The notes under the pieces are model-generated. The model made no database searches and had not been told where the DNA came from. It worked only from the letters and a program-made list of their open reading frames with translations. This document shows positions 40,702 to 62,966 of a DNA stretch of 64,000 nt, in pieces. The translations under genes were made by a program, and so were the position numbers. Position 1 is the first letter of the stretch. Each line of letters starts with the position of its first letter. The stretch is from Promethearchaeota archaeon (GTDB taxonomy: Archaea; Asgardarchaeota; Lokiarchaeia; Sigyniarchaeales; SOKP01): NCBI GenBank assembly GCA_019057865.1, contig JAHLWP010000021.1:1-64000 (forward strand), read 5' to 3'.

Positions 40702-41583
40702 TTATTTAGAACGGGTTATAATAAAATCCACTAATTTTCCAAGGTTTTTAACGTTTTCATAAACTTTAGGAGCATTTTCTTCTAAAAAATCTTTAAAAAC
40801 CTCCCAATTCTCCTTCTTGCCTGAAGGTGCCTTATCTAGTAATTTTTTAACTTCATTAAAGTCGTAGGCAAAGATTAAAGCATTGTCAACTCTATTAGCA
40901 TCATTACATAATAGAAAAAGATAATAATCATTTAAATCCCAAGGATTTAAAACATGAGCAGGTTTGTTTCCATCCCCGGCACTCTTACCTCTTAATAAAC
41001 GTGTATCTACCTGTGTTGGTAATACCATATTAAAATTTATATTCTCTCGTTTATATTCCATTGTCATGGATTTTTGTAACCCTACGACAGCAAATTTACT
41101 TGCAACGTAGGCAGCGAGTTTTGATGGAGCATTTGGATATGCTTCGCTTCCAGTGATTATAAACCTTGCTTTTTCCTTCTTATCATCCTTCTTCAGGTAA
41201 GAATAAGCCGCTTTAAAAGTATAGAACACTCCTAGTATATTAACATTTAAGATTTCAGAAAATTTCTCATTGATAAACTCATGAGTTGTCCACATTCGAG
41301 AATATCCCGCATTGGCAACAATTCCATTAAGTAAACCTAATTCATTATGAAATGTTTGAAATGCCGCTTCAACTTCTTCAAATTTAGTTATATCTGCTGT
41401 TTTAGCAACAACTTTTACTCCAACTCCTAATTCTTCAATTTCCTTTTTCGAAATATTTAATTCTTCTGAAGTTCTAGAGACTAATCCAATATTAGCACCT
41501 TCTTTAGCGCATGCTATTGCTATCGCCTTCCCTATCCCTCTACCTGAGCCAGTAATTACAACATTTTTTCCTTTTAACAACAT
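40702..41583 (-). CDS. SDR family oxidoreductase
   Basis: TGSGRGIG, ANAG, YVASK. Confidence 0.9.
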   Translation of the reverse strand: MLLKGKNVVITGSGRGIGKAIAIACAKEGANIGLVSRTSEELNISKKEIEELGVGVKVVAKTADITKFEEVEAAFQTFHNELGLLNGIVANAGYSRMWTTHEFINEKFSEILNVNILGVFYTFKAAYSYLKKDDKKEKARFIITGSEAYPNAPSKLAAYVASKFAVVGLQKSMTMEYKRENINFNMVLPTQVDTRLLRGKSAGDGNKPAHVLNPWDLNDYYLFLLCNDANRVDNALIFAYDFNEVKKLLDKAPSGKKENWEVFKDFLEENAPKVYENVKNLGKLVDFIITRSK

Positions 41584-41676: not shown

Positions 41677-42810
41677 TTATGAAACTTTATATGCTTCATT
41701 AATAGCAGAACACCCCCCACACCTCACACACCCTGCTACATTTTCTAAAGGATTAACTCCATATTGCTTCATTAATCTTCCAGCATTAAGATAAATTTCT
41801 AGTAAATTTTCATAATTAGTTATTGGAAGATCTTTTTTCCCCGGGATTGAGCGAACTGGAGTAATAAACGGAATAACGCCAAGCGAAATTACTTTTTCTA
41901 TATCCTTAATAAAATCCTCTTTAGATTCCCCAAAGCCAGTTAAAACATAAGTTTCTACTTGATTTTTTCCAAAAGCCTCTAAAGCCTGAATCCAATTTTT
42001 CTCAAACACGTCATATGGAATATGAGCCTTTCCAGGAGTAATTTCTTTTCTTAAATTCTCATCCAGAATCTCTATATGTATACCTATTGTATCAGCACCA
42101 GCTTCTTTCAATTTATTTATGTATTCTAAATCCTCTAAAGCTTCAATTTGCACATGCAATGGGATATCTGGATGATTTCTTTTTATACCCCCTAATAATT
42201 CAATATATCGATTAGCACCTTTATCAACTGTCTCTTCTGTGCCACTGGTTAATGTCATATGAGAACATCGACCTTCTTTTTTAGCGGCTGTAATAACTTC
42301 TGACATCTGTTTATAGTTCTTTTCTAAAATAGTAGTATCATATGATAAACTTAATTCAATGCCACAAAACTTGCACGCTTCCCCACATGCCCAATATACA
42401 CATTTTTGATATATTGTACTTGCTAAACAAGCAATTCCATGTACTAAAGCGATTCTCCTCATCTCAATGCCATCAGATGTTTTTAAATCATAAAATTGTG
42501 GATTATTAACTAGTTTTACTTTCCCAAAGCTTCTCTTTTTCTTCTCATCGTAAATTTCAAAGAATTCTTCCCTCTTTTGTTTTAAAATAAGACTGGTCTT
42601 TGTTTTGTCGTTCCATAAAACTGCATTTACTAAAGTTTTATTATCTTCTAGTAAAAAATACCTACCTCCAAGAGGACCAGCTCCACCTTTGCGACCAAAA
42701 TTAATTTCAATTCCTTGTTCTTTATAATACTCAATTAATTGTTTATCTAAGAAAATTCCTTTACATAATAATTCAGTCTTTTGTTCTAATGCTGTAAGAG
42801 GATCTATCAT
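41677..42810 (-). CDS. Radical SAM protein, MSMEG_0568/NitD-like
   Basis: GRKGGAGP, IALVHG..CLASTIYQKCVYWACGEACKFCGI, HMTLTSGT, C-terminal AGCVRCGGCS. Confidence 0.8.
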   Translation of the reverse strand: MIDPLTALEQKTELLCKGIFLDKQLIEYYKEQGIEINFGRKGGAGPLGGRYFLLEDNKTLVNAVLWNDKTKTSLILKQKREEFFEIYDEKKKRSFGKVKLVNNPQFYDLKTSDGIEMRRIALVHGIACLASTIYQKCVYWACGEACKFCGIELSLSYDTTILEKNYKQMSEVITAAKKEGRCSHMTLTSGTEETVDKGANRYIELLGGIKRNHPDIPLHVQIEALEDLEYINKLKEAGADTIGIHIEILDENLRKEITPGKAHIPYDVFEKNWIQALEAFGKNQVETYVLTGFGESKEDFIKDIEKVISLGVIPFITPVRSIPGKKDLPITNYENLLEIYLNAGRLMKQYGVNPLENVAGCVRCGGCSAINEAYKVS

Positions 42811-44469: not shown

Positions 44470-45927
44470 TTATCCCCAAAATGGTTTCCAGCGATTCCAT
44501 ATATCCCATCGCTGTATATTTTTTATGTTATACCAGACTGCTTTTTGTCTATATCTACTTTTTAAGATTTTATAAATTTGGTGGGAGATGTAGCGGGGTC
44601 GCTGCATAAACTTTCTATGAGTTTCTTTTATACGTGCCATTAGTTCACTCAAAGGTATATTAAGAATAGCAGTACCAACTTCCCAACATTCATCCGGGTT
44701 AATTCGCTTTGCATCTACCATCTGATCCCAAATCCAATTTCCGGGAATTATGCCTAAAATATGAAATTGTGGAAAATCAATATCTAATTTAAGTGATAAA
44801 TTAAATGTATCAATTATTTCCTCACGTGTCTCAATTGGCGCACCCACTATAAAATTTGCTAGAATAATATCAATCCCAACTTTTTTCGAATTTTTTATTG
44901 CATCATAGACTTGATTTAGTGTAATCCTTTTATTGTACCAGTCTAAGACTCTTTGTGAGCCACTTTCGACGCCATAACTAATAATCTTGCAGCCCATATG
45001 TTTCATTGCAGTCAGAAGCTCCCTTGAGCTCTGAGTTACCCTCCCCTCAGCCATCCACTTTAAATCTATCTTTTCTTTTCTAATTAAATAAGATAGTTCC
45101 ATTAATCTTTTTTTACTTATAGTAAAGTTATCATCAACCCAATACAAATTTTGATAACCTTGATTCTCGAGAAGAGAAAGTTCTTCTACTATATTTTTAG
45201 GAGATCTTGGGCGCCATCTGCCCCAAAACATAGCGCTTGAGCAAAATGTACATTGAAATGCACAACCTCTTGAAGAAGAAGCAGTGGCAAAATTTCCTAG
45301 CGAAATATCAAGACCTTCTACTTCACTTTTATATTCTACATTTCCTAATAATTTCCTATTTGGAAATGGAAGTGTGTCAATATTTTCTATAAGGGGTCTA
45401 TCTTCATTTCTAATAATTCTACCATTATTTCGATACGACACACCTCTTATATCTTCAAAGCCATGACCTTTTTCAGTTTTTTCAGCAATTTCTAAAAGAG
45501 TGTTTTCCCCTTCTCCTCTAATGCAAGCATCAATGAATGGGTACTTATTTAATATTCTGGTATCATTGAAAGTTGCGTGATAATTCCCAAATAAAATCTT
45601 AACATTCGGATTTATTTCTTCCTTTACTCTTTTAGCAATTTCTGCTGATGTAATTCCAGTTCCTGAGGTGGTTATCGTTGAAAAACCTAAAATATCTGGA
45701 TCTTCGTGTTTTATCCGCTTTAGAGTATCATTAATCGAAGCCCCCCTAGCGAATTGATCATATATAGATACATCAAAATTATTTTCGCTTAGATAAGTAG
45801 CGAGGTATAGTATCCCCATTGGCGGAAATCCATAAAAATCTATTTTTTCTTTGACATACTGTTCGGCATCTTTAACGGAAAAAAATCCTTTTTCAGGTGG
45901 CTTTGGGAAAATTAAAGATACTTTCAA
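44470..45927 (-). CDS. Cobalamin-binding radical SAM enzyme (class B-like)
   Basis: PPMGILYLA, GNYHAT, RGEGE (B12 domain); SSRGCAFQCTFC; VDDNFT, GVESGS. Confidence 0.92.
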   Translation of the reverse strand: MKVSLIFPKPPEKGFFSVKDAEQYVKEKIDFYGFPPMGILYLATYLSENNFDVSIYDQFARGASINDTLKRIKHEDPDILGFSTITTSGTGITSAEIAKRVKEEINPNVKILFGNYHATFNDTRILNKYPFIDACIRGEGENTLLEIAEKTEKGHGFEDIRGVSYRNNGRIIRNEDRPLIENIDTLPFPNRKLLGNVEYKSEVEGLDISLGNFATASSSRGCAFQCTFCSSAMFWGRWRPRSPKNIVEELSLLENQGYQNLYWVDDNFTISKKRLMELSYLIRKEKIDLKWMAEGRVTQSSRELLTAMKHMGCKIISYGVESGSQRVLDWYNKRITLNQVYDAIKNSKKVGIDIILANFIVGAPIETREEIIDTFNLSLKLDIDFPQFHILGIIPGNWIWDQMVDAKRINPDECWEVGTAILNIPLSELMARIKETHRKFMQRPRYISHQIYKILKSRYRQKAVWYNIKNIQRWDIWNRWKPFWG

Positions 45928-46124
45928 AAAATCACTTTAAATTTGAATTAAATTTAATTGTTCTTTTAATTAAAACATCATCATTTCAATTCTAGTTTAA
46001 TTATGTAAGTTAAATAAATCTTAAAAATAAAATCACTTTTAATGTATTTATTAGAAAAGAGATAAAAATTCGTAAAATTAAAACAAATAATATCATATAC
46101 AACCCTGTGAAAATGGTCTATTAA

Positions 46125-47585
46125 ATGAAAATAATTGATAAAAAAATCCAAAAAGTAGCGTTAGTAAATCCCAATTTTATTACAAAAAGCATTACAGATA
46201 AATTTACAATCCCTGCTTTAGGATTAGAATATCTTGCTGCTAATATTTTAGATTTAGCTGAAGTGAAGATAATTAATGGTAAAGTAAGGAATTTAAACCT
46301 CAAGGAAATTATGGAGGAAATTAATGAATTTAACCCAGATATTGTTGGAATTTCATGTTGTTTAACAACAGGAGTTAATTTTGCCTTAGAAATAGCAAAA
46401 GAGTCAAAAAAACTTGGATATTCAATCGTATTAGGGGGGTGGCATCCTAATTTTGCACCTTCTGAAGTTTTAAAATATCCATTTGTAGATATTATTGTCC
46501 GAGGAGAGGGAGAAGTCACCTTTCGGGAATTAATCGAAAACAAAAATCTAGAAAATATAAAAGGAATATCATATAAAAACAATGGGAGTATTATAAACAA
46601 TCCAGATCGCCCATTAATCAAAGATTTAAATAAACTACCATTTCCTGCAAGGGAATTAAGAAATAAAAAGTCTTATTTTCAAATCTTTCAGATGCCTATA
46701 GATGCGATTGAGACATCAAGGGGTTGCCTATTTAAATGCACTTTCTGTAATATTCATCTTTTTTATCGAGGAACCTATAGAACAAAAAGTCCAGAACGGG
46801 TTATTCAAGAGTTAAAAATTATTACAAATGGAAAAAAACATATAAATGTAATGATTGTGGATGATAATTTCACAACAGATATTAAAAGAGTAGAGAAAAT
46901 TTGTGATTTAATAATCAAAGAAGGAATTAAAGTGGATTTAACTTGTCAAAGTCGCATTGATGTTATAAAAAAGAATCCAAATGTAATCAAAAAAATGTCT
47001 AAAGCAGGGTTTTGGTGTTTTTTCCTTGGTATTGAATCATTTAACCAAAAATCTTTAAACAGTATTCAGAAAAGAGTTCAATTACGGGATATTTTTGAAG
47101 CAATTAAAATACTTCATGATAACGATATAGTAATAATTGGCAGTATGTTGGTGGGTTCAAATCTTGATGAGGAAGAGAAAGATACTGATTTAATGATAAA
47201 GGTTGTTAAAAAGTTAGGAATAGATTTTCCGTTATATTCGGTAATGACACCTTTACCAGGCACGAAATTCAGAGATGTATTGATCGAAAAAGATTATCTG
47301 CTATCTCATAATTGGAGTGAATACAATTTTACCACAGCAGTAAATCGATTAAATAAACTTTCAAAGGAAAAGTTAGACCAACTTTTATCTAAGGCATATT
47401 ATTATGGATATTTTCATAGGGGGTGGAAAGATACTTTTATGAGATTATATAGGAAAAAAGGAATTAATTTATTTTTAAATACAAGAAAATTTAGAGCTAT
47501 TAAGAATCTTTTAGGTTTTTTTAGAAGTATTAGAAGAATGAAAAATGAAATAGATTCAATATCCCCTACCATAAAATTTAATTGA
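46125..47585 (+). CDS. Cobalamin-binding radical SAM enzyme (class B-like)
   Basis: PALGLEYLAA, GGWHP, RGEGE; ETSRGCLFKCTFC; VDDNFT, GIES, TPLPGT. Confidence 0.92.
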   Translation: MKIIDKKIQKVALVNPNFITKSITDKFTIPALGLEYLAANILDLAEVKIINGKVRNLNLKEIMEEINEFNPDIVGISCCLTTGVNFALEIAKESKKLGYSIVLGGWHPNFAPSEVLKYPFVDIIVRGEGEVTFRELIENKNLENIKGISYKNNGSIINNPDRPLIKDLNKLPFPARELRNKKSYFQIFQMPIDAIETSRGCLFKCTFCNIHLFYRGTYRTKSPERVIQELKIITNGKKHINVMIVDDNFTTDIKRVEKICDLIIKEGIKVDLTCQSRIDVIKKNPNVIKKMSKAGFWCFFLGIESFNQKSLNSIQKRVQLRDIFEAIKILHDNDIVIIGSMLVGSNLDEEEKDTDLMIKVVKKLGIDFPLYSVMTPLPGTKFRDVLIEKDYLLSHNWSEYNFTTAVNRLNKLSKEKLDQLLSKAYYYGYFHRGWKDTFMRLYRKKGINLFLNTRKFRAIKNLLGFFRSIRRMKNEIDSISPTIKFN

Positions 47586-47652: not shown

Positions 47653-48804
47653 ATGTTAAGCATTACACATAAATCGAAAAATCAATCTTTTCAATTGCCA
47701 ATATCAGGATATTTGGGATATACTATAAGTAAATTTTTTCATTTATGTACACCTATTACTTTTCTTCATGAGAGATTTGAAACTATAACATTATTTAATG
47801 ATATCCGTAAATTGAAAATAAATAAACCTATTTACATTACTGGTCTCGCTCGTGCAGGAACAACCATCGTATTGGAAATGTTAAGTAAGCACCCAGATTT
47901 AGCAACACATCAATATAAGAATCTTCTTATACCATATTTCCCTAATTGGTTATATAAACTTACCAATAAGGTTAGGCTTTTTTCAAAACCGACTGAAAGG
48001 ATTCATAAGGATGGTATAATGGTTACGCGTGATAGTCCCGAAGCAGTAGAGGAGATATTCTGGAGAAAATATTTTAAGCACACGAGTACTGAAAAATCTT
48101 CACATATAATAAATGGGAACATAATAAACCCCAAATTTGAGAGATTTTATCCAAATCATATCCGAAAGCTCTTAATTGCCCAAAAGCGTTCTCGTTATTT
48201 AGCAAAAAACAACTACAATATCACTAGATTGGAGTATTTGCTACGAATTTTCCCATCTACCAAATTTTTACTAATTATTCGTAATCCAGTAAATCATATT
48301 GCTTCATTAATTAAACAAACAAAACTTTTCATGAAGATGGAAAATCAAATACCTCTTTTACAAGATTGGTTGAAAATCCTAGGGCACCAGGAATTTGGCC
48401 ATCATAGCATTTGTATAAATGTAAATAACACAGAATCAATTCATAAAATTCGTAAATTGTGGAGCAATAAAAAAACATATGTAAAAGGATGGGCATATTA
48501 TTGGGTGTCCATTTACGATTTTATTGCCGATAGTCTTGAAGCAAATGAAAAACTCAGAAGTGCGACCTTTATAGTTAATTATAATGAATTATGCGAAAAC
48601 CCAGCAGATATTATTGATAGAATACTTGAACATACTGAACTGCCCTTAGATAAATTTCTGAAAGTTAGAGAATATTATATTAATCATTTACATAAACCCA
48701 CCTATTATTCTCCTGACTTTTCTGAACAAGAACTCTCAGATATTTACGAGATTACAAAGGACACTGCTTCTCGATTTGGATTAAAAATTTCTTTAGGCAA
48801 TTAA
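47653..48804 (+). CDS. PAPS-dependent sulfotransferase
   Basis: 5'-PSB loop PIYITGLARAGTT; 3'-PB KFLLIIRNPVNHIASL; YNELCENP. Confidence 0.88.
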   Translation: MLSITHKSKNQSFQLPISGYLGYTISKFFHLCTPITFLHERFETITLFNDIRKLKINKPIYITGLARAGTTIVLEMLSKHPDLATHQYKNLLIPYFPNWLYKLTNKVRLFSKPTERIHKDGIMVTRDSPEAVEEIFWRKYFKHTSTEKSSHIINGNIINPKFERFYPNHIRKLLIAQKRSRYLAKNNYNITRLEYLLRIFPSTKFLLIIRNPVNHIASLIKQTKLFMKMENQIPLLQDWLKILGHQEFGHHSICINVNNTESIHKIRKLWSNKKTYVKGWAYYWVSIYDFIADSLEANEKLRSATFIVNYNELCENPADIIDRILEHTELPLDKFLKVREYYINHLHKPTYYSPDFSEQELSDIYEITKDTASRFGLKISLGN

Positions 48805-49539
48805 CTGTTTTAAAGTTATGAATTCCGCTTTTCTAGCTAGAGATTCCACAATAAAACCACGTAATGTTTCTAAAAATGTATTTCCTGTATGAAGCCAACG
48901 ATCTAGTCTAAATAAAATATTTTTTATTGTTTCAAACTTACTTGCATGCTTACGAATTAAATTTTTCATATTTATTGCTTCACAAGGATGAAAATATAAT
49001 ATAAGTAATTCATTTTTAAAGATCTTCCGTTTTAGAAAAGGATAAGGTAATCTCAAATAGATACTATATTTTGAAGGGTGAAATTCTTGGATTTTTTTGT
49101 TATCTATTTGGTAATGTGGTAATTTCTTGGGTGATACAATCGAGGAATCGTATCTAAATCCTAAATTACTTAATATTTCAAATAAAAATTTTGGTGGTTT
49201 TAAATAAGGAGCTCGAAAACCGATAATCTCTGAATTTTGACAAGTTTCTTCTAGAACCTTTTTATTCTGATAAATTACATCTTGGCATTTAATAAAATCT
49301 AAGAGATTTAATCGTTCATGAGTTAAGCCATGACAAGCAATTTCATGACCTTTTTGCTCGATTTGTCTTATATACTCTGGTAGATGCTCAACGACATTTC
49401 CAGTACAAAAAAAAGTCCCCTTGACATTGAAATTATCTAAGATATCCAATATTTTCAATAATCCAATTTCCACGCCGAAATAGGTATCCAAAACATTAGG
49501 AAGATCCCTTTCAATATCAAAAGTCAGTGCAATCTTCAT
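48793..49539 (-). CDS. Polysaccharide deacetylase (CE4/NodB)
   Basis: TFDIE, TFF, HEIACHGLTH, GFRAPY, YDSS, YFHP. Confidence 0.9.
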   Translation of the reverse strand: MKIALTFDIERDLPNVLDTYFGVEIGLLKILDILDNFNVKGTFFCTGNVVEHLPEYIRQIEQKGHEIACHGLTHERLNLLDFIKCQDVIYQNKKVLEETCQNSEIIGFRAPYLKPPKFLFEILSNLGFRYDSSIVSPKKLPHYQIDNKKIQEFHPSKYSIYLRLPYPFLKRKIFKNELLILYFHPCEAINMKNLIRKHASKFETIKNILFRLDRWLHTGNTFLETLRGFIVESLARKAEFITLKQLIA

Positions 49540-50803: not shown

Positions 50804-51574
50804 CTATAATTGTTTCTTCCAATTAATATCTTTTGCTAAATTATAAAAAATGTCTTTTTTTGAATGGTATTGGACAACACGTCCTAAACTACGACGAGTG
50901 CTTAAATATCTTCCACTTGTTAACACTGAAATAAAATTTAGAGTTTTAATTTTACCCTTTTTCATAATTCTACTTAGATATATTAACGAATCTGAGAATA
51001 CCTTGTCAATTCCCATTAAATTTGGCGGTAGTTGCTTAAATCCACCAACTTTAAAAAATATATCTCTTCTAACAATTATATTACACCCTAAAAGTTCAGG
51101 ATATCCAAGTAAAGTTTTAAAAAAATACCATAAGTGCATACTAAAGTTAAGAAAAAAATAGATCGTTATAGTAAATATCTGGGAACCCAAATTAAATGTA
51201 ATGGCTCTTCCATCATAATATTTAACTCTGGCACTACAAGCAAAAAGATTTTTATGTTTCTCAAAGATTCTATAGACTTTTTGTAAGAAATATGGATCTA
51301 TTAACGTATCTGCATCTAAAAATACAAGTAAATCACCAGAAGTTTTAGGTACAACAAAATTTAATTGAGATGACTTTCCTCTTTTTGGTGATATATACAC
51401 TTCTGCAAATTCTTTTGCTAAAGAAACGGTTTTGTCAGAGCTTTGTCCATCAACTACAATAATTTCATAAGGAATGTTGCAATTTTGCCTTTTAACGGCT
51501 GTTAATGCTTTTATTATGTGTGTCTCTTCATTATAGGTGGGAATAATAACTGAAATTTTTGGTTTATAATTCAT
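50804..51574 (-). CDS. Glycosyltransferase family 2
   Basis: ISVIIPTYNEE, VVDGQSSDKT, FLDAD, VGGF, TSGR. Confidence 0.92.
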   Translation of the reverse strand: MNYKPKISVIIPTYNEETHIIKALTAVKRQNCNIPYEIIVVDGQSSDKTVSLAKEFAEVYISPKRGKSSQLNFVVPKTSGDLLVFLDADTLIDPYFLQKVYRIFEKHKNLFACSARVKYYDGRAITFNLGSQIFTITIYFFLNFSMHLWYFFKTLLGYPELLGCNIIVRRDIFFKVGGFKQLPPNLMGIDKVFSDSLIYLSRIMKKGKIKTLNFISVLTSGRYLSTRRSLGRVVQYHSKKDIFYNLAKDINWKKQL

Positions 51575-51685: not shown

Positions 51686-52801
51686 ATGTCTAAAGCTTCC
51701 GGTAAAACGAAATTTTTTACTAAGGGATTCATAATTTCATTTATTTTTTTAATCTTAAGTTCTACAATTATCATTTTATTTATAATAAATAGAATTTTTT
51801 TTTCAATTTCATGGATTGATACAATTTATGATTATATAGCACCACTATTATCAAAAATTTTCTATAAATATAATATCTACGTCTATGGTGGAATTTTAAT
51901 CGCTTTTGTGTTTCTACTTCCATTATTTGTATTAGGATATAACCTAGCAAAAACGAGACAATTAACTGGGTCAATTTTGTATATTTTTAGTTTATTAGGA
52001 TTCGTAATGATTATTTTCATAGCATCTTATTATACCTATTTTAGTATCTTATTTAATCAAGATTTAACTCTAAATACCAGGTTATTGCTATTCTTACTTT
52101 TTTTACCAATTAATTTTACATTGAGTTTAATCTTGTTTCTTGTAAATATAGATTTCATCATTTTTTTTAAGGATTTGGTTAAAGCAAGGAAAATTTGGAA
52201 GCACAAAAGACCTAAATTTGAAATTGAAGTTAAAGGTAAAATAACTAATATCAATATAGAAACGGATGAATTTATTTTCACACCTGTACCAATGTTAATT
52301 ATTGCGAAATATCTTCAAACTAAAGGTTTTTCTGTATCGTGGTTTGTAAGAGGCGCTTTTAATCATTTAATATCTTTAGTTATTACATATTTGACAGGCT
52401 GGCCACGAGCTAGAAATGTATTATTTCGACTTACCGGAATGAAAATAGGTAAAAATTGTCATATTTCTCAAAAAGCAATACCTGATCCACTCTTACCAGA
52501 ATTAATTGAATTTGAAGATGGTAGTGGCTGTGGTATTGGTACAAAATTATTAACCCATAATGCAATGAATATAAAACATGGACGCTTCAGTTTTGGGCCT
52601 ATTAAAATTTGTAAAAATGCAAGAATAGGAGCATACTCACTTGTATTACCTGGAGTTACAATTGGTAAAGGATCGATTATTGGAGCACATTCAGTAGTAG
52701 CAGATGATATTCCACCATATTCTATCGCACATGGTTCACCAGCTAAAGTAGTACGGCGATTAACTGATGATGAAAAAAAGGAAGTAAATAAAAAATATTA
52801 G
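51686..52801 (+). CDS. Membrane-anchored acyltransferase: about 4 N-terminal TMs + left-handed beta-helix (hexapeptide) domain
   Basis: Hydrophobic N-half; GMKIGKNCHI, LLTH, ARIGAYSLVLPGVTIGKGSIIGAHSVVADDIP..SIAHGSPAKV. Confidence 0.85.
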   Translation: MSKASGKTKFFTKGFIISFIFLILSSTIIILFIINRIFFSISWIDTIYDYIAPLLSKIFYKYNIYVYGGILIAFVFLLPLFVLGYNLAKTRQLTGSILYIFSLLGFVMIIFIASYYTYFSILFNQDLTLNTRLLLFLLFLPINFTLSLILFLVNIDFIIFFKDLVKARKIWKHKRPKFEIEVKGKITNINIETDEFIFTPVPMLIIAKYLQTKGFSVSWFVRGAFNHLISLVITYLTGWPRARNVLFRLTGMKIGKNCHISQKAIPDPLLPELIEFEDGSGCGIGTKLLTHNAMNIKHGRFSFGPIKICKNARIGAYSLVLPGVTIGKGSIIGAHSVVADDIPPYSIAHGSPAKVVRRLTDDEKKEVNKKY

Positions 52802-52890: not shown

Positions 52891-54075
52891 ATGGCATCCG
52901 AAATAATGCTTAGTGATATAAGGACTGAAGTAGAAGCAACTTCTAATGATTGTAAACTATATAAACAAATCTGTGAAGAAAAAGAATATGATTTTGATCA
53001 GACAATTAAAGGATCAAATCTTGATGAAATACCTTATGTAAATTGGAATTATTTTAAAGAATCAAATAAAAAATTTCAGGAATTATTACGAATTCCTTAT
53101 AATGAATTATCATATTGGACAATTAGTTCATCTACATCCGGAGATCCAAGTCTAGTAGGAAGAGATGCTGAAGACATTGAAGTATTTAAAAATAATTATC
53201 GAAAAGTATTTGAAGAATATTCAAAAATGCGCTTAATTAAACGCTTAATTTTATTTGCGCCATCAATTGAATTTATGAATAAAATGCCAGGAAGCTGGTT
53301 AGGAAAACGAGGTTTTCTTTTTTATCGAGATATTGCAGATATTTGGAAAAATTATGAGATAGATTATTTATTGAAATTTAAAGTTTGGAAGGTTCTTCTC
53401 TACTTAATTAGTCATTTTAAGGCAAAAGCATTTATCGAAATAAATGGAAAATTGATGGTGAAAAGTCTTAAAGAGGTAGAACACCAGAAAACCCCTACAT
53501 TAATCGCTAATTCAGTCCCTCTAATGTATCAAAATTTTGTAGATTATTACAAGAAACATAAAAAAGGCTTTAATATGCCTGAAACTTTCAGAATTCAGCT
53601 TGGAGGTGGAGGATGGAACGGTATAAAAGGGAGAGTAAAACTTGAGCATAAAATAGATAAAGTGGACTTTATGGAAAAGATGTCTGGTTTTTTCAACATC
53701 CCATATGATAATATTACAGATAATTATGGTGCAACTGAAGTTCCAATTGCTTGTGGTGGTCATTGGAGTAAAAATTATGAGGATTTTCTATTTCATATTG
53801 ATAAAGATGAAGCTTATATAATCATCCGTGATATAGAAAATCTCGAAAGAATTAAAAAAACAAAAGAACCCGGTATAATAGAGGTATTAACCCCTTATGG
53901 TGTTAAATCCTATGCTGGTGTTGCTGTCATGCTTGATGATATAGTTGAAATAGTAGATTTTAACAAATGTGTTGAATGTGGTAGAGAAGGATTAGTATTT
54001 AGAATAACAGGAAGAATGACACCAGAAATTGGAAAAGGATGTAGTTCTTTTACGAATTTGTTCCCTTTTAAATAA
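52891..54075 (+). CDS. LuxE-like acyl-protein synthetase (ANL superfamily), paralogue 1
   Basis: SSSTSGDPS, GGGGWNG, DNYGATE, IIIRD..NLE, DDIV, CVECGREG..FRITGR....GKGCS terminal Cys. Confidence 0.8.
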   Translation: MASEIMLSDIRTEVEATSNDCKLYKQICEEKEYDFDQTIKGSNLDEIPYVNWNYFKESNKKFQELLRIPYNELSYWTISSSTSGDPSLVGRDAEDIEVFKNNYRKVFEEYSKMRLIKRLILFAPSIEFMNKMPGSWLGKRGFLFYRDIADIWKNYEIDYLLKFKVWKVLLYLISHFKAKAFIEINGKLMVKSLKEVEHQKTPTLIANSVPLMYQNFVDYYKKHKKGFNMPETFRIQLGGGGWNGIKGRVKLEHKIDKVDFMEKMSGFFNIPYDNITDNYGATEVPIACGGHWSKNYEDFLFHIDKDEAYIIIRDIENLERIKKTKEPGIIEVLTPYGVKSYAGVAVMLDDIVEIVDFNKCVECGREGLVFRITGRMTPEIGKGCSSFTNLFPFK

Positions 54076-54193
54076 AGGGCTTCTCATTTTTTGTCTAATA
54101 ATTAGTATAATAGCGCTATTTATTCTTTTTGATGATCATGGCTACATATGGACAAAAATTAGAGAAAAACCCTAATAAAAATAAGTGGAGAAA

Positions 54194-55495
54194 TTAGTGA
54201 AGCCAATCTATTATAGAAGAACAACTTCTACCTTGAGCATCCGTTAACCTTCCAATTACTCTAAATGTAGCACCTTCATAACCACATTCTGGACATTTCC
54301 TTTTTGAAATAAGCTCTACAATATCGTCAACTAGAACTGCTTGATTTATGCTACCATTTACACCATAAGGAGTAATTACTTCGAGTAAACCTTCCATACC
54401 ATCATTTACTGGTTCTAACTTATCTAGATCTCTTACTATAATCCTGGCAGTATCAGGGCAATGTAATAAGAAATCTTGGTATTTTTCAGACCAATGTCCT
54501 CCAAAGAGAGTCGGACCCTCTGTAAATGCATAAATATCTGCAATATCTTTCGATTTAATGTTAAAAACTTTTTCATAATTTTCAATAAATTTAACTTTTT
54601 CTACTGCGTCTAACTTTGCTTCACCCTTAACGCCATCCCATCCTCCACCACCGCAACCAACGAAAGCTTTTCCATCAAGATCAAAAAAAATGTTTTCTTT
54701 TAATAATCTTTTCTCAAACATATTATTCATTAAAAGTGGACTCCCACCAAATATAATTTTGCTCACTTCTATTCCTTTCCAATGTCCAGTTTTTAGAATT
54801 GTTTTAACCATTTTCAGCATTTTACTTACATCTAAAATAAAACCCCCTCTTATTGAAAGAGATGAAATTATTGCCCCAATTGTTTTTAAAATTTTTCCTT
54901 TTATCATATATTCCTCATGCCCATAATATTCCCATGGTTTATTCATACATGCTGTGAAGTAGCGTGTTTTTTTAACATGTTCAAATCCTTTAGCATTTTT
55001 TTTCGCCATAAATGACATCATTAAACGATTTGGTGCAAAATTAAAAACAAGACATCTTTTGGGACCAACTTTTAAGTCCTTCCATCTAAAAAACTCTGTA
55101 AAAACTTTAATTGAATTATATTGTATCTGGTCAAAATCCTCTACTGTTCGAGGAACTATTGAGGGATCTCCTGTTGTAGAAGACGAACATGAAAATAATA
55201 CAATTTTATCAATAGGTACTTTTAGAAGTTGTGAGGTTCGACCTTCTGATTTTTTATAAATGTCAGTAGGAGTATATGGGATTGTTTCCAAATTATCGAT
55301 TGTTAAATCCTCTGGAATTGTAAAATCGAACTTCTTACAAAAGTTTTCTTTGTAATAAGTACAATTATTATAGGATAACTTTATTTGATCTAGCAAATCT
55401 TTGCAAAATTTTTCATCTGGGTAAGGAGTTGGTTTAAAATCAAAATATTTTGTCTGTAATTCTTCAGGTAAATAATCATGTGCTTTAAATACCAA
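54194..55495 (-). CDS. LuxE-like acyl-protein synthetase (ANL superfamily), paralogue 2
   Basis: IPYTPTDIYK, SSSTTGDPS, GGGGWDG, DIYAFTE, IIVRD..KLE, DDIV, CPECGYEG.TFRVIGR....GRSCS. Confidence 0.82.
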   Translation of the reverse strand: MVFKAHDYLPEELQTKYFDFKPTPYPDEKFCKDLLDQIKLSYNNCTYYKENFCKKFDFTIPEDLTIDNLETIPYTPTDIYKKSEGRTSQLLKVPIDKIVLFSCSSSTTGDPSIVPRTVEDFDQIQYNSIKVFTEFFRWKDLKVGPKRCLVFNFAPNRLMMSFMAKKNAKGFEHVKKTRYFTACMNKPWEYYGHEEYMIKGKILKTIGAIISSLSIRGGFILDVSKMLKMVKTILKTGHWKGIEVSKIIFGGSPLLMNNMFEKRLLKENIFFDLDGKAFVGCGGGGWDGVKGEAKLDAVEKVKFIENYEKVFNIKSKDIADIYAFTEGPTLFGGHWSEKYQDFLLHCPDTARIIVRDLDKLEPVNDGMEGLLEVITPYGVNGSINQAVLVDDIVELISKRKCPECGYEGATFRVIGRLTDAQGRSCSSIIDWLH

Positions 55496-55597: not shown

Positions 55598-56950
55598 TTA
55601 TTTTGTAGATAAAGCTACTATTTCTGCTTCTTGTCTTTCAAATAACATTGGTGTTTTTTCCCAACTTAAATCTTTAGGAAGTTTAAATTGACGTAAAAAC
55701 ATATAAAGATGAATAAAGCCACTTATTGGAAAAAATAATAAAAGACTGTAATGTTTATCGCAATATTTTCGTATCGCATTGAATATAAATCCAAATTGAA
55801 AGATCAAGCAGAAAAGGCTCCAACTTAGTAAATAAAATTCTCCAATCATAAAATAAAATATTGCAAAACCAATTATAATAGGGATCCACGTATCCAAATT
55901 CGCTATAACCATCATTGTCATATTTCTGGAGATAATTAGTGATTTCCCATTCTTTTCTTCGCTTTTCATTTGCATTAATTTTGGCATATCAAAAATAAAT
56001 CCTGCAAGCCAGCGTGTTCGTTGTTTTACTAAAATCTCCCAAGTATTTGGCACATATTCATAAATTTTTGCCTTGGGCGAAAAGTAAATTTTTACACCAT
56101 CTAAATTTAAAAGCACAGAAAGATATAGATCTTCTGTCATTGAATCTTCATTAAAACCTTCATACTTCAATAAATATTTCGTCCGAACAGCAAAATTTCG
56201 CCCAAATGAATAAGCTGATGACCCTAATCTGTTTTTAATTTCAAATAATAATCCGCCTCCAGAAACAATAGAATAATCAAGAAAGATACCTTTAGTCAAT
56301 TTATTATCTTTCCAATTTTTAACTAAAACAGGACCTATAACTGCATTATACTTATCATCTTGAAATGGTGAGATTAAATGTTTTAATGTATCTGGTTGTA
56401 AAATACAACCTGCATCATAAAGGACAACAATATCATTTTTTACATATTTTAAGCCATAATTCAGGGCTGGAGGTTTTCCCTTTTTAGGAAGATCCTCTGA
56501 TAACACTTCTATATCTATTGTGTTATGCTCTTTTGCAAAATTTCTACAAAATTCTGATGTATCATCTGTTGATCCACTTGTAATTACAATTATTTGGATG
56601 TTTTCTTCAGGATAATTTGACTCAATAATCGATTTTAAAGTTCTTTCTAATAATATTTTTTCATTTTTACAAGCAATTAATATACTTATATTTGTATAGT
56701 AAGGTGTTTTGGTTCGATAACCTTTCCCAAATGACGCTAAGAAATGTATTCCATAAAAAATAACAAATCCTAACAACATTATTAGACCAATTAATGGAAA
56801 TATGAACCACCAGTAAGTTAAAGGGTTAAGAATGAATCTATCAATTGCTCTTTTTACTCCAGATGACCAGAAAGGTGGAAAATATATGTGTAGTAGCACA
56901 AAAACTATTACCCATACTGATCCATATAACAAATATCTTGAGATTTTCAT
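55598..56950 (-). CDS. Membrane GT2, cellulose/hyaluronan synthase-like (D,D,D,QxxRW type)
   Basis: GSTD, GKPPALNYG, YDAG, TEDL, KQRTRWLAG; N- and C-terminal TMs. Confidence 0.9.
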   Translation of the reverse strand: MKISRYLLYGSVWVIVFVLLHIYFPPFWSSGVKRAIDRFILNPLTYWWFIFPLIGLIMLLGFVIFYGIHFLASFGKGYRTKTPYYTNISILIACKNEKILLERTLKSIIESNYPEENIQIIVITSGSTDDTSEFCRNFAKEHNTIDIEVLSEDLPKKGKPPALNYGLKYVKNDIVVLYDAGCILQPDTLKHLISPFQDDKYNAVIGPVLVKNWKDNKLTKGIFLDYSIVSGGGLLFEIKNRLGSSAYSFGRNFAVRTKYLLKYEGFNEDSMTEDLYLSVLLNLDGVKIYFSPKAKIYEYVPNTWEILVKQRTRWLAGFIFDMPKLMQMKSEEKNGKSLIISRNMTMMVIANLDTWIPIIIGFAIFYFMIGEFYLLSWSLFCLIFQFGFIFNAIRKYCDKHYSLLLFFPISGFIHLYMFLRQFKLPKDLSWEKTPMLFERQEAEIVALSTK

Positions 56951-56954
56951 TTTT

Positions 56955-57890
56955 TCATTCTCCTTTATTTTTATCCATTTTTTTTAAATTTTTCCAAATA
57001 TAATTAGCAAAAAGAATCACTGAAAGGGTCATAATAGCTAAAAGACTGATTTGATAAGTCAACATTGACCAAGTTATTATCCACTCGTGCGATGCAGACC
57101 ATATTGCTGTAGCATCGGGATTGATCAAATGTGTTATCAATACCACAAGACTAGAAGTACCATAGAGTGCAAAAAATGTAGTGATTAATAAGATTCGCGT
57201 TATTCTCTCACCAACAAACGGTTTTGTTTCATGTAAACCTAAACCTTCATGTCTTGCTCTCATATACTCATAAATAAATATCAGTAAGATATTGGTCCAA
57301 ACCATCCATGCAAAATCGAATCCATTCGATAAAACCACTAAATTAGTAGGAACTAAACATACCAACATTAATGTATCGCTTACTCTATCAATCACATTAT
57401 CTAACCAAGCACCACTTTTAGATTTTATATGCAATAACCTTGCTATTGCTCCATCAATCCCATCAATAACTCCTGTAAATAGTACTAAAGCAGCAAGAGC
57501 AAAAAACCAAGAGCCATAGCCTAGTTGGTCAGAAAATAAATCTAATGTGTGACCCTTACTAGCCATTATAACACCATAAAAGATGAGAAATGATAAAATT
57601 AAATTCATAAAAGATACCAAATTTGGAGTTAAGCCCCATCTTATAAAGATTTTTGCTCCGTGATATGTTGCAGGCATATAAAGTTTACCAGCGGGATCCT
57701 TTTTCATTTGTGCAAATTGTTCTTCTAACTTATGAGCTTGTCCATGATCATTAAGCCAATCTTTTATGAATTCATCCAAACTCATAAAATCTTGTTTTGG
57801 TTTTTTATTAAAGAGTCCACTAATGAAAATAATTAAAAGAATCCCTAGTAAAACTAGCGGAAATACTATCTCAAATATTAGATTTGTCAT
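56955..57890 (-). CDS. CDP-alcohol phosphatidyltransferase
   Basis: TPNLVS; DGIDGAIARLLHIKSKSGAWLDNVIDRVSD (DxxDGxxAR...GxxxDxxxD); YMRAR; extra N-terminal TM. Confidence 0.92.
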   Translation of the reverse strand: MTNLIFEIVFPLVLLGILLIIFISGLFNKKPKQDFMSLDEFIKDWLNDHGQAHKLEEQFAQMKKDPAGKLYMPATYHGAKIFIRWGLTPNLVSFMNLILSFLIFYGVIMASKGHTLDLFSDQLGYGSWFFALAALVLFTGVIDGIDGAIARLLHIKSKSGAWLDNVIDRVSDTLMLVCLVPTNLVVLSNGFDFAWMVWTNILLIFIYEYMRARHEGLGLHETKPFVGERITRILLITTFFALYGTSSLVVLITHLINPDATAIWSASHEWIITWSMLTYQISLLAIMTLSVILFANYIWKNLKKMDKNKGE

Positions 57891-58072: not shown

Positions 58073-59422
58073 TTGAAGAACCTTGAACCTTTTTTTAACC
58101 CAAAAAGTATCTTAATTGTAGGCGTTTCAAGGAAAGCTTATACTTTTAGTTATACTGTATTGAAAAACCTTTTAGAGATTTTTTATCAAGGCAAACTCTA
58201 CATATTAAACCCAAATGCTAATGAGGTATTAGGTGTTAAATCCTATCATTCTTTAGAAGAATTACCTGAAATTCCAGAACTAGCAGTAATAGTTTTAGGT
58301 ACGAAAATATTAGACATTGTGGAAGAATTAGGGAAGTATGGTGTAAAATATGTAACAATTCAATCTGAATTAAAAACAGGAATTAATGATACTGATTTAA
58401 CATTAAAATTGCATAAAGTCTGTGAAAAATATGGGATAACATATTTAGGACCTTCAATGATAGGAATTATTAACTTTATTGATAACTTTACGACATCAAT
58501 TATTCCTGTTAGACAACATATAATGCGAGAAAATAAGAACATAACAGAGGGTATAGGTTTCATAGCACAATCTGGAGGGTTAGCAGGTGCTCTAGGGTGG
58601 TGGACTCCTTCACAAAAATTACCCATATCAAAAGTTGTACACTTAGGAAAAGGCTTTCACGTTAGTGAACAAGATATTATTGAATTCTTTCTTAATGATA
58701 AAACAGTCAAAGTTATTTCTTTGTTTTTAAGGGAAATTTCGGATGAATTAATAGACGCAGTAAAGAATGTCTCTCTATATAAACCTGTTCTTTTCTTTTA
58801 TGTAGGAAAAGATGAATTAAAAGAAAAAGAATTAGAAAAAGCAGGAGGAATATCAGTATTAAATTATATTGAGCTTTTTGAGATAGCTAAGATATTCTTA
58901 TGGTGTCCGGAGCCTAAGGGTCCCAATTTAGGGATTATTGGACCTAGTTCTGGTGCAATTCATCTAATTGTAAAAGAAATGAGAAAACAACATTTATCTT
59001 TGGCAAAGCCAGATAAAGAATCTCAAGACATAATTATAAATAAAATAGGTGGCTCTACTTGCGCATATGGTAACCCTGTTGATTATTGGCCCCCAGAGAA
59101 ATTTATAGGTATTAAAATCTGTGGTATATATAATACATCTGCCTCTACCTTATTAAAAGACGAACATGTTGATGGATTAATTATTGCCTTGGAATTTTTT
59201 ATTGAAATTGAATTTGATTTTAATATATTTGATAGTATAAGAAGAACAAATCCAGATAAACCAATTATCGCAATTCTTATACAAGCTGAACATGAAGGAG
59301 CCAAACGAGTATTCAAATCTGCTTCTGAGATAAAGATTCCCGTCTTTGAAAATGAAATAGAGCGCGCTGTACGAGGATATAGATTGTTATATGACTATTA
59401 TTCAAAAATAAAAAAGAAATAA
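58073..59422 (+). CDS. ADP-forming acyl-CoA ligase alpha-subunit homologue lacking the phospho-His loop
   Basis: FFNPKSILIVGVS CoA-binding domain, LGPSMIG, IAQSGG, NPVD; the SHTG segment after KPVLF is missing. Confidence 0.8.
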   Translation: MKNLEPFFNPKSILIVGVSRKAYTFSYTVLKNLLEIFYQGKLYILNPNANEVLGVKSYHSLEELPEIPELAVIVLGTKILDIVEELGKYGVKYVTIQSELKTGINDTDLTLKLHKVCEKYGITYLGPSMIGIINFIDNFTTSIIPVRQHIMRENKNITEGIGFIAQSGGLAGALGWWTPSQKLPISKVVHLGKGFHVSEQDIIEFFLNDKTVKVISLFLREISDELIDAVKNVSLYKPVLFFYVGKDELKEKELEKAGGISVLNYIELFEIAKIFLWCPEPKGPNLGIIGPSSGAIHLIVKEMRKQHLSLAKPDKESQDIIINKIGGSTCAYGNPVDYWPPEKFIGIKICGIYNTSASTLLKDEHVDGLIIALEFFIEIEFDFNIFDSIRRTNPDKPIIAILIQAEHEGAKRVFKSASEIKIPVFENEIERAVRGYRLLYDYYSKIKKK

Positions 59423-62372: not shown

Positions 62373-62966
62373 ATGATAATTGATCATCTTGATAGGGTAC
62401 TGGCTCTCAAGGTAGTTTATTACGGTCCGGCTCTGAGTGGTAAAACAACTTCTTTAAAAGCTCTTTTTAATCACTTTGGAAAAAAAGACAAAGTATTCAG
62501 CATTGAAAGTACGCGTAAAAGAACACTTTTTTTTGATTATGGGACTGTACTCTTCCAAAACGAATTATGGAAGATTAAAGTTCATATTTATAGTACAACA
62601 GGTCAGGATTTTTACCTTGTAACTCGTCCTATTACTTTAAGGGGGGTGGATGGAATTATTTTTGTTGCTGATTCTCAAAAAATTGTTTTTGAACGCAATC
62701 TTATTTCTTGGACTGAATTAGAAAAATATTTCCAGGATTCTTTATTAAGTCTTCCGAAAATTATAGCCTTTAATAAACAAGATTTGCCTGAAAAATTTAA
62801 TCCAGAGGATTTTTTGGATGAAATTGGCTATAAAAATTACGAAAATATTGATACTGAATATACTATCGCAATTAATGCAGAAGGAATTTTGGCATCGTTC
62901 GAGAATATTCTGAGACTGATTTTCAAGGAATACTCTGAAAATCAATTGATTTCAGCTATTAGTTAA
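62373..62966 (+). CDS. MglA-like small GTPase
   Basis: KVVYYGPALSGKTTSL, RTLFFD, TTGQ (G3 lacking Asp), LRGVDGIIFVADS, NKQD. Confidence 0.9.
   Translation: MIIDHLDRVLALKVVYYGPALSGKTTSLKALFNHFGKKDKVFSIESTRKRTLFFDYGTVLFQNELWKIKVHIYSTTGQDFYLVTRPITLRGVDGIIFVADSQKIVFERNLISWTELEKYFQDSLLSLPKIIAFNKQDLPEKFNPEDFLDEIGYKNYENIDTEYTIAINAEGILASFENILRLIFKEYSENQLISAIS

Follow-up and report, generated by a model that had tools for sequence, protein, structure and literature searches.

A LuxE-family clade without LuxC in Lokiarchaeia and its possible role in acylating a glycoconjugate

To our knowledge, the sole known role of LuxE is that of the synthetase in a reductase of two enzymes that converts acids to aldehydes. 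In a cryo-electron microscopy study of LuxC–LuxE, LuxE was described as an ANL enzyme without the C-terminal subdomain, in which the catalytic Lys238 lies on the loop GGGWKTKQK (the K238A mutant is inactive), Arg355 is also functional, and Cys364, within a flexible C-terminal TRxxKGCxLS motif, becomes acylated (PMC9157457). Here, we analyze two LuxE-like genes, which we refer to as LuxE_C and LuxE_A, that lie tail to tail in a 64,000-nucleotide stretch of Lokiarchaeial DNA (the window; GenBank contig JAHLWP010000021.1). The window belongs to a 4.26-Mb genome (contig C40 in our numbering) that is 99.67% complete, and its close homologs are labeled Promethearchaeota or Lokiarchaeia. The same DNA recurs in marine-sediment and cold-seep metagenomes of several studies; none of the runs listed as carrying the region is an RNA run, and a literature search pairing LuxE with Asgard, Lokiarchaeota, or Promethearchaeota found no paper.

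Several other systems provide points of comparison. The flagellin glycosylation islands of Aeromonas hold luxE, luxC, and acyl carrier protein (ACP) genes, and glycan acylation is suspected there (PMC7874193); as in the archaeal locus, a LuxE-family gene is found in a glycan-biosynthesis island, but it is accompanied by LuxC and ACP, neither of which is found in the Asgard genome. Among the nearest relatives of the pair (30–40% identity) are the products of uncharacterized luxE–luxC operons of Clostridia and Paenibacillaceae (Clostridium, Caloramator, Anaerocolumna, and Cohnella), some of which also include a short-chain dehydrogenase/reductase (SDR) gene. The best structural match is to the N-terminal domain of the phenylacetate-coenzyme A (CoA) ligase PaaK and of BT_0428 (PDB 2Y27 and 4RVN; Z 25–26). 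PaaK uses CoA and carries a further C-terminal subdomain of ~100 residues with a catalytic Lys, and this subdomain is absent in the Asgard pair. EhpF, a truncated ANL enzyme of a phenazine cluster (PDB 3HGU), likewise has no C-terminal subdomain and matches with Z 19.5–19.7, but its sequence identity is ~11% and its contexts are unrelated.

Family membership and hallmarks of the convergent pair

LuxE_C (P0001) is encoded by an open reading frame with an ATG start at 52891–54075 on the forward strand (394 amino acids), and LuxE_A (P0002) by one with a TTG start at 54194–55495 on the reverse strand (433 amino acids), leaving a gap of 118 bp between the two ends. The proteins are 35% identical over 406 columns (BLASTP, E 2e-59), which is far beyond chance, and both exceed the 24.9-bit cut-off of the Pfam LuxE model PF04443, LuxE_C with 65.2 bits and LuxE_A with 87.7 bits. 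An earlier note, made from the letters of this DNA alone, had described a convergent pair of paralogous LuxE-like acyl-protein synthetases and had proposed a PF04443 search; the coordinates, the paralogy, and the family are all borne out, and every motif block that it listed as common to the two genes is present in both translations. The NCBIfam equivalog for LuxE of the Lux fatty-acid reductase (NF052244, cut-off 550 bits) gave scores of 21.4 and 36.9 bits for the pair, and the PaaK equivalogs reached 15–26 bits against cut-offs of 646–700, over the N-terminal 90 residues only. Because PF04443 is passed and the NCBIfam LuxE and PaaK equivalogs yield only 15–37 bits, we classify both proteins, on sequence grounds, as members of the LuxE family that are not orthologs of the LuxE of lux operons. 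The grouping with PaaK or GH3 ligases that the earlier note had named as counter-evidence was not seen: the Pfam GH3 score of 13.6 bits is below the threshold of 23.6, and the C-terminal subdomain of PaaK is missing. By these comparisons, LuxE_A and LuxE_C are LuxE-family enzymes and not PaaK or GH3 CoA or amide ligases.

The top PDB sequence match of LuxE_A is LuxE of Photobacterium phosphoreum (7xc6_E). The Asgard pair resembles this LuxE of the LuxCDE system (PDB 7XC6; PMC9157457) in Pfam family, in truncation of the ANL fold before the C-terminal subdomain, and in possessing a phosphate-binding loop, a GGGW loop with Lys (at a different position; see below), a hinge Arg, and a Cys motif at the C-terminus that is short and flexible. 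Among 15 members of the clade to which the pair belongs (see below), the residues S104, S105, T107, S112, G282–G285, W286, K290, K294, E326, R416, and C425 are invariant in LuxE_A numbering. The first four of these fall in the phosphate-binding loop SSSTTGDPS of LuxE_A (ANL motif A3; 55160–55186, reverse strand), which aligns with the corresponding loop of PaaK; in LuxE_C the loop reads SSSTSGDPS (53125–53151, forward strand), with S79 and S87 invariant. The counterpart of the Lys238 loop in LuxE_A has the pattern GGGGW-DGV-K-GEA-K (54614–54652, reverse strand), and alignment to LuxE_A and to the clade places the GGGGW...K loop of LuxE_C at 53602–53640 (forward strand). The two invariant Lys residues of the LuxE_A loop stand at W+4 and W+8, whereas LuxE has its Lys at W+1; the W+4 placement is common to LuxC-coupled Firmicute relatives. 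R416 is the counterpart of the hinge residue Arg355, and the Arg of a GR pair in LuxE_A aligns with the RR of LuxE in 7xc6_E. Besides the position of the Lys, features that set the Asgard pair apart from LuxE of LuxCDE are a CxxC ahead of the hinge, the insert GGHWS, and one more amphipathic helix; its genome has no LuxC, LuxD, or lux operon, and its partners are a family 2 glycosyltransferase (GT2) and a cytidine diphosphate (CDP)-alcohol phosphatidyltransferase. The CxxC motif was rejected as a peculiarity of the pair, since members of PF04443 generally have CxC or CxxC ahead of the hinge, LuxE–LuxC fusions included.

The C-terminal Cys of LuxE_A, Cys425 (codon 54221–54223, reverse strand), aligns with Cys364 in the KGCS of LuxE and is invariant both in the 15 clade members and in 108 orthologs of LuxE_A, to which we refer as type A. 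In LuxE_C the candidate acyl-carrier residue is Cys384 (a tgt codon at 54040–54042, forward strand), and its alignment column is likewise invariant. AlphaFold2 models of the two proteins are confident overall, with a predicted local distance difference test (pLDDT) of 89.8 and a predicted template modeling score (pTM) of 0.90 for LuxE_A, and 90.4 and 0.88, respectively, for LuxE_C. Only the last 14–16 residues fall below a pLDDT of 50 (residues 379–394 in LuxE_C), and the Cys lies inside this tail in both models. The claim of the earlier note that both proteins retain the LuxE-type carrier Cys is therefore upheld, as the two residues are aligned, invariant, and located on tails of predicted disorder. 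Despite this disorder, conservation across the 108 type-A orthologs is higher in the tail (0.83) than the average for the protein (0.79), and G422, C425, S427, and W431 are each present in 100% of these sequences; such a combination fits what would be expected of a mobile arm that docks somewhere. Residues 20–422 of the LuxE_A model align by VIA-align to residues 7–332 of the 425-residue PaaK1 chain with Z 26.4, GH3 enzymes match with Z 15–17, and only 17 residues follow the hinge Arg, such that the C-terminal subdomain of PaaK has no counterpart. Judged from the model, LuxE_A corresponds to the N-domain of PaaK alone, that is, to a truncated ANL enzyme.

A basic and hydrophobic insert within both proteins is limited to their Asgard clade, and the alignment has a gap at this position in LuxC-coupled relatives. 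In LuxE_A it spans residues 201–213 (54857–54895, reverse strand; helix predicted at 202–212, pLDDT 65–70), and in LuxE_C residues 164–176 (53380–53418, forward strand; helix predicted at 165–175, pLDDT 71–78). It had been suggested in the earlier note that the inserted helix may bind membrane. The insert is indeed clade-specific and predicted to be helical, but it is not a transmembrane segment: a transmembrane helix in the LuxE-like proteins was rejected because the insert is too short and polar, with a hydropathy maximum of 1.4 compared with 2.5 in the neighboring membrane GT2 (Kyte-Doolittle scale, 19-residue window). Since the insert is amphipathic, peripheral binding to a membrane or a partner is plausible.

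Loss of the LuxC linkage in an Asgard clade

A family scan of 1.8 billion cluster representatives returned only 256 related clusters, and trees were estimated with FastTree on 135 rows and with IQ-TREE in quick mode on 51 rows. The Asgard sequences of types A, B, and C, the first and last of which are represented by LuxE_A and LuxE_C, form one clade (FastTree 99; IQ-TREE SH-like approximate likelihood ratio test 92), so that the phylogeny called for in the earlier note places the pair in an Asgard-specific clade inside the LuxE family. This clade is nested in a subfamily that also holds sequences from Clostridia/Paenibacillaceae and DPANN, and it is split (support 99) from the other half of the family, to which LuxE–LuxC fusion proteins belong. 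The Clostridia/Paenibacillaceae operons share the marks of the subfamily with the Asgard pair (position 120 is D, the Lys stands at W+4, and an [HY][WYF][SD] insert is present) but have no amphipathic helix insert. They further differ in gene context: a LuxC gene (418.7 bits) lies directly downstream of the LuxE-like gene in 24 of 24 clustered bacterial loci, often with an SDR gene after it. Across the sister lineages, 36 of 37 non-Asgard loci have a LuxC match no more than 8 kb away, the lone exception being a contig of 2.5 kb, compared with 1 of 43 Asgard loci, and that single locus holds a bacterial-type copy. On the basis of these counts, the lost linkage to LuxC is a property of the Asgard A/B/C clade.

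The exceptional Asgard locus (L025; MBAA01000079.1, Promethearchaeota CR_4) is the only one with a bacterial-type LuxE, which is 37% identical to the Firmicute query and adjoins LuxC; this LuxE may be a lateral transfer from Firmicutes. Other genera of Lokiarchaeia also encode a canonical LuxE of ~395 amino acids, type D, which belongs to the same Pfam family but falls in the other half of the tree, with the LuxE–LuxC fusions. Type D always adjoins a LuxC of 564–588 amino acids and is missing from the genome of the window. In L106 (G117:C421), L105, L107, G030:C39, and G019:C231, the type D gene is followed directly by such an unusually long LuxC, and some Lokiarchaeia genomes carry both a type D LuxE–LuxC pair and a reductase-free type A.

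The earlier note had also remarked that no luxC or luxD partner lies in the window. This absence extends to the entire genome, in which we found no match to LuxC (PF05893, E ≤ 0.01), no match to LuxD (PF02273), and no PP-binding/ACP domain; of 14 control genomes, 9 did give matches to the PF05893 model. The presence of a cognate luxC outside the window was thus rejected. LuxC was also not found in three of four congeners, and the fourth gave only a weak, generic match. Overall, 10 of 14 genomes with type A are without a true, LuxE-adjacent LuxC, two of these ten with weak generic matches only. Because the genome has neither LuxC nor ACP, a role for the pair that depends on neither would fit its gene content. 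As the clade has shed the reductase but retains a strongly conserved and presumably self-acylating Cys arm, a different acceptor is implied.

Genomic neighborhoods of the paralogs

LuxE_A, the conserved core paralog, has orthologs of 65–95% identity in Lokiarchaeia and Helarchaeales. Directly upstream of it lies a membrane GT2 resembling PgaC/IcaA (55598–56950, reverse strand), with a Pfam Glyco_tranf_2_3 score of 119.9 bits and an NCBIfam PgaC_IcaA score of 108.7 bits, the latter below cut-off. Located 4 nt upstream of the GT2 is a CDP-alcohol phosphatidyltransferase paralog (56955–57890, reverse strand; Pfam CDP-OH_P_transf 47 bits), one of seven such paralogs in the genome, whose nearest NCBIfam model is archaetidylinositol-phosphate synthase (70 bits, below the cut-off of 180). 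The order phosphatidyltransferase, GT2, LuxE_A on a single strand recurs in six of seven loci of other genomes at 68–95% identity.

Co-occurrence was examined in 41 genomes of the taxonomic family; these genomes are mutually related, and the counts are therefore descriptive only. Orthologs of the GT2 occur in 19 of the 41, and the phosphatidyltransferase paralog in 20, comprising all 19 GT2 genomes and one further genome (G129) in which the locus is at a contig end. Type A is present in 14 genomes, every one of which also carries the GT2 and phosphatidyltransferase pair, and in 12 of them no more than 3.3 kb separates type A from the GT2; type A was found in none of the 22 genomes lacking the GT2. 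The module is accessory, occurring in about a third to half of the genomes of the family, and is not a core Asgard trait. Two related observations concern its components elsewhere: one genome (G135:C47:2026–9063) encodes three tandem PgaC-like GT2 paralogs, 57–62% identical to the copy in the window, together with a second phosphatidyltransferase paralog, away from its LuxE_A, and a congener (G008:C2:3601–3858) retains what is probably a pseudogene remnant, a stretch of 90 amino acids that matches the C-terminus of a type-A-like LuxE at 51% identity and contains an in-frame TGA.

LuxE_C, the faster-evolving and optional paralog, follows a gene for a membrane-anchored hexapeptide left-handed beta-helix (LbH) O-acyltransferase (51686–52801, forward strand; Pfam Hexapep) by 89 nt, an adjacency found in three of nine type-C loci. 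The nearest NCBIfam model of the LbH protein is heptaprenylglyceryl-phosphate O-acetyltransferase (77.6 bits), and its nearest PDB entries are galactoside and maltose O-acetyltransferases. At a threshold of at least 49% identity, type-C orthologs occur in 9 of the 41 genomes. They are missing from 7 of the 14 type-A genomes, two genomes have type C without type A, and most genomes with both carry them on different contigs. Between genera, type C is 49–52% identical and type A 69–77%. Only in the genus of the window (G000 and G008) were the two genes seen side by side in convergent orientation. LuxE_C looks like an optional second activator, which probably acts on a different acid or at a different acceptor position.

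Where the window has LuxE_C, between the LbH gene and LuxE_A, two other genera instead have genes for an alpha/beta hydrolase, a SPASM-type radical S-adenosylmethionine (SAM) enzyme, and a GT2 (L017:6077–8949 and L022:5770–8626), and no ortholog of this hydrolase was found in the genome of the window. Given these different contents, the position is a slot for varying tailoring genes; the hydrolase could work together with LuxE_A, either in acyl transfer or as a thioesterase. The genome also encodes a third paralog, type B (P0003; 391 amino acids, PF04443 68.5 bits), which keeps the tail Cys (G000:C29:13192–14394; locus L004:9223–10398). It adjoins methylenetetrahydrofolate reductase genes and a pyridine-nucleotide disulfide oxidoreductase gene, a neighborhood common to few close genera. 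Neither the type-B contexts, with their methylenetetrahydrofolate reductase and methyltransferase genes, nor most type-C contexts include a conserved functional neighbor.

Other genes that recur near the module encode the LbH O-acyltransferase, a small GT2, a deacetylase of carbohydrate esterase family 4 (CE4), B12-radical-SAM enzymes, and a sulfotransferase. The small GT2 (50804–51574, reverse strand) is identified by Pfam and synteny as a conserved companion of the LbH gene. The CE4 (NodB-type) polysaccharide deacetylase (48793–49539, reverse strand; Pfam Polysacc_deac_1 67.3 bits; NCBIfam NodB 64 bits, below cut-off) is syntenic in five of seven related loci. A divergent pair of B12-binding radical SAM genes occupies 44470–47585 in the window, with BchE, HpnJ, and HpnR as the best models, all below cut-off; in the related loci L020 and L021, up to three tandem B12-radical-SAM copies come right after LuxE_A. 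At 58073–59422 lies a gene for an ACD-alpha-like CoA-binding protein (AcCoA-syn-alpha 209 bits, cut-off 567), and no gene for a beta subunit adjoins it. This gene was rejected as a part of the module because it is present in 35 of the 41 genomes whether or not the module is present; it is a housekeeping-type gene outside the island.

Proposed acyl transfer and alternative explanations

The explanation that we favor for these observations is that LuxE_A and LuxE_C would activate a carboxylic acid by adenylation, with a fatty acid or another organic acid as the likeliest substrate, and pass the acyl group to a thioester on their own tail Cys (Cys425 in LuxE_A, Cys384 in LuxE_C). The tail would thereby act as a built-in acyl carrier that replaces ACP in an organism without ACP. 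In place of LuxC, the acceptor would be a membrane-associated glycoconjugate, built by the CDP-alcohol phosphatidyltransferase and the PgaC-like GT2 and tailored by the CE4 deacetylase, the LbH O-acyltransferase, the small GT2, and the sulfotransferase. LuxE_A would serve as the conserved acylating partner of the core pair, and the clade-specific amphipathic helix may hold the enzymes at the membrane. LuxE_A in this scheme probably supplies acyl groups to a glycolipid or glycan of the cell envelope and does not take part in aldehyde production. A comparable combination of enzymes is found in the mycobacterial pgsA1-patA-pimA operon for acylated phosphatidylinositol mannosides, where a CDP-alcohol phosphatidyltransferase is encoded together with both a glycosyltransferase and an enzyme for acylation; this is an analogy only, as the mycobacterial system uses an acyl-CoA acyltransferase and a GT4 glycosyltransferase, and no homology is claimed.

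This interpretation must be made cautiously, and for the proposal as a whole, a LuxC-free LuxE enzyme that carries the acyl group on its tail Cys and transfers it to the glycoconjugate of the phosphatidyltransferase/GT2 pair, we consider the case evenly balanced. Several points weigh against it. We infer the substrate class, the thioester formation, the acceptor, and the membrane association for this clade. The putative catalytic Lys stands at W+4 instead of the W+1 of LuxE; LuxC-coupled Firmicute relatives likewise have it at W+4. Type A is not essential to the GT2/phosphatidyltransferase pair, as 5 of the 19 genomes with the pair are without it, and between the GT2 gene and LuxE_A lies an AT-rich spacer of 102 bp that includes a T-run, making any co-transcription a conjecture. 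The neighboring LbH enzyme belongs to the class of acetyl-CoA-using maltose and galactoside O-acetyltransferases and may do without an acyl group from LuxE, and types B and C are mostly found in unrelated, non-conserved contexts. Lastly, several PaaK-fold enzymes among the fold matches (the GH3 family, ClxA, and NatL2) use the adenylate itself as the donor, with no intervening thioester.

This last point underlies the alternative that the pair are direct amide or ester synthetases, in which an amine or hydroxyl of the acceptor attacks the acyl-adenylate and the tail Cys is structural or regulatory. ClxA (Z 24.4), NatL2 (Z 23.1), AjiA1, and GH3 enzymes (Z 15–17) are all close folds, and the CE4 deacetylase of the island would expose a suitable glucosamine amine. 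We nevertheless consider this scenario unlikely, because the Cys is invariant not only across the clade but also in LuxC-coupled relatives and LuxE–LuxC fusions, where it is a carrier, and because a disordered tail that is more conserved than average (0.83 versus 0.79) fits a mobile arm that docks. Ordinary CoA ligases, with CoA taking the acyl group, acyl-CoA feeding the LbH acyltransferase and other enzymes, and the tail Cys transiently or never acylated, would be compatible with the PaaK-like fold, with the usual preference of LbH enzymes for acyl-CoA, and with the CoA-binding protein gene nearby. That neighbor is present in 35 of 41 genomes irrespective of the module, however, the genome already encodes ~19 ordinary full-length AMP-binding ligases, and the pair has no counterpart of the subdomain with which ANL ligases supply the A10 Lys and adopt the conformation for CoA thioesterification, all of which makes this explanation improbable.

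The acyl group might alternatively be reduced to an aldehyde or alcohol, for instance for ether-type or wax-type lipids, by a non-homologous reductase that has replaced LuxC. Coupling to LuxC is found in every close non-Asgard relative, in many cases together with an SDR gene, and the window does contain an SDR gene at 40702–41583, 12 kb off. Yet no reductase gene is conserved beside types A, B, or C in the compared loci, and what is conserved beside type A is a glycosyltransferase gene together with a phosphatidyltransferase gene; we therefore regard a replacement reductase as doubtful at best. The adjacency of the two convergent genes here and in one congener could also be taken to indicate an obligate heterodimer; the earlier note had raised a heterodimer as one possibility. 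With type C optional (absent from 7 of 14 type-A genomes and present alone in two), the adjacency seen in one genus only, the two genes mostly on different contigs where both occur, and their divergence between genera so unequal (49–52% identity for type C, 69–77% for type A), such a heterodimer is unlikely to the point that we give it very little credence.

Returning to the proposal of a self-acylating carrier enzyme, such an enzyme would be a stand-alone protein combining adenylation and carrier functions in organisms without ACP. A more specific version is that Lokiarchaeia with the island make an acylated glycosyl-phospho-lipid or lipo-oligosaccharide whose acyl group comes from a self-acylating LuxE-type enzyme, the peptide tail replacing both ACP and CoA; we think it rather unlikely that all of this holds jointly. 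Two forms of the product fall within this reading. One would resemble glycosylphosphatidylinositol or phosphatidylinositol mannosides, with an inositol-phosphate-type headgroup receiving N-acetylglucosamine, followed by de-N-acetylation and acylation; the other would resemble Nod factors, drawing on the PgaC/NodC-like GT2, the NodB-like deacetylase, the LbH O-acetyltransferase, and the sulfotransferase. If the acylated-glycolipid reading were true, it would represent a new mode of acyl transfer, and the archaeal relatives of eukaryotes would have a lipid component of acyl, possibly fatty-acyl, nature.

Two further genes of the window were recorded in passing. A radical SAM protein near the MSMEG_0568 family (41677–42810; 271.9 bits, cut-off 303.7) is syntenic with an L10e ribosomal protein gene in the relative L018, and a small GTPase-like open reading frame with a P-loop (62373–62966; 197 amino acids) is of a kind common in Asgard archaea.

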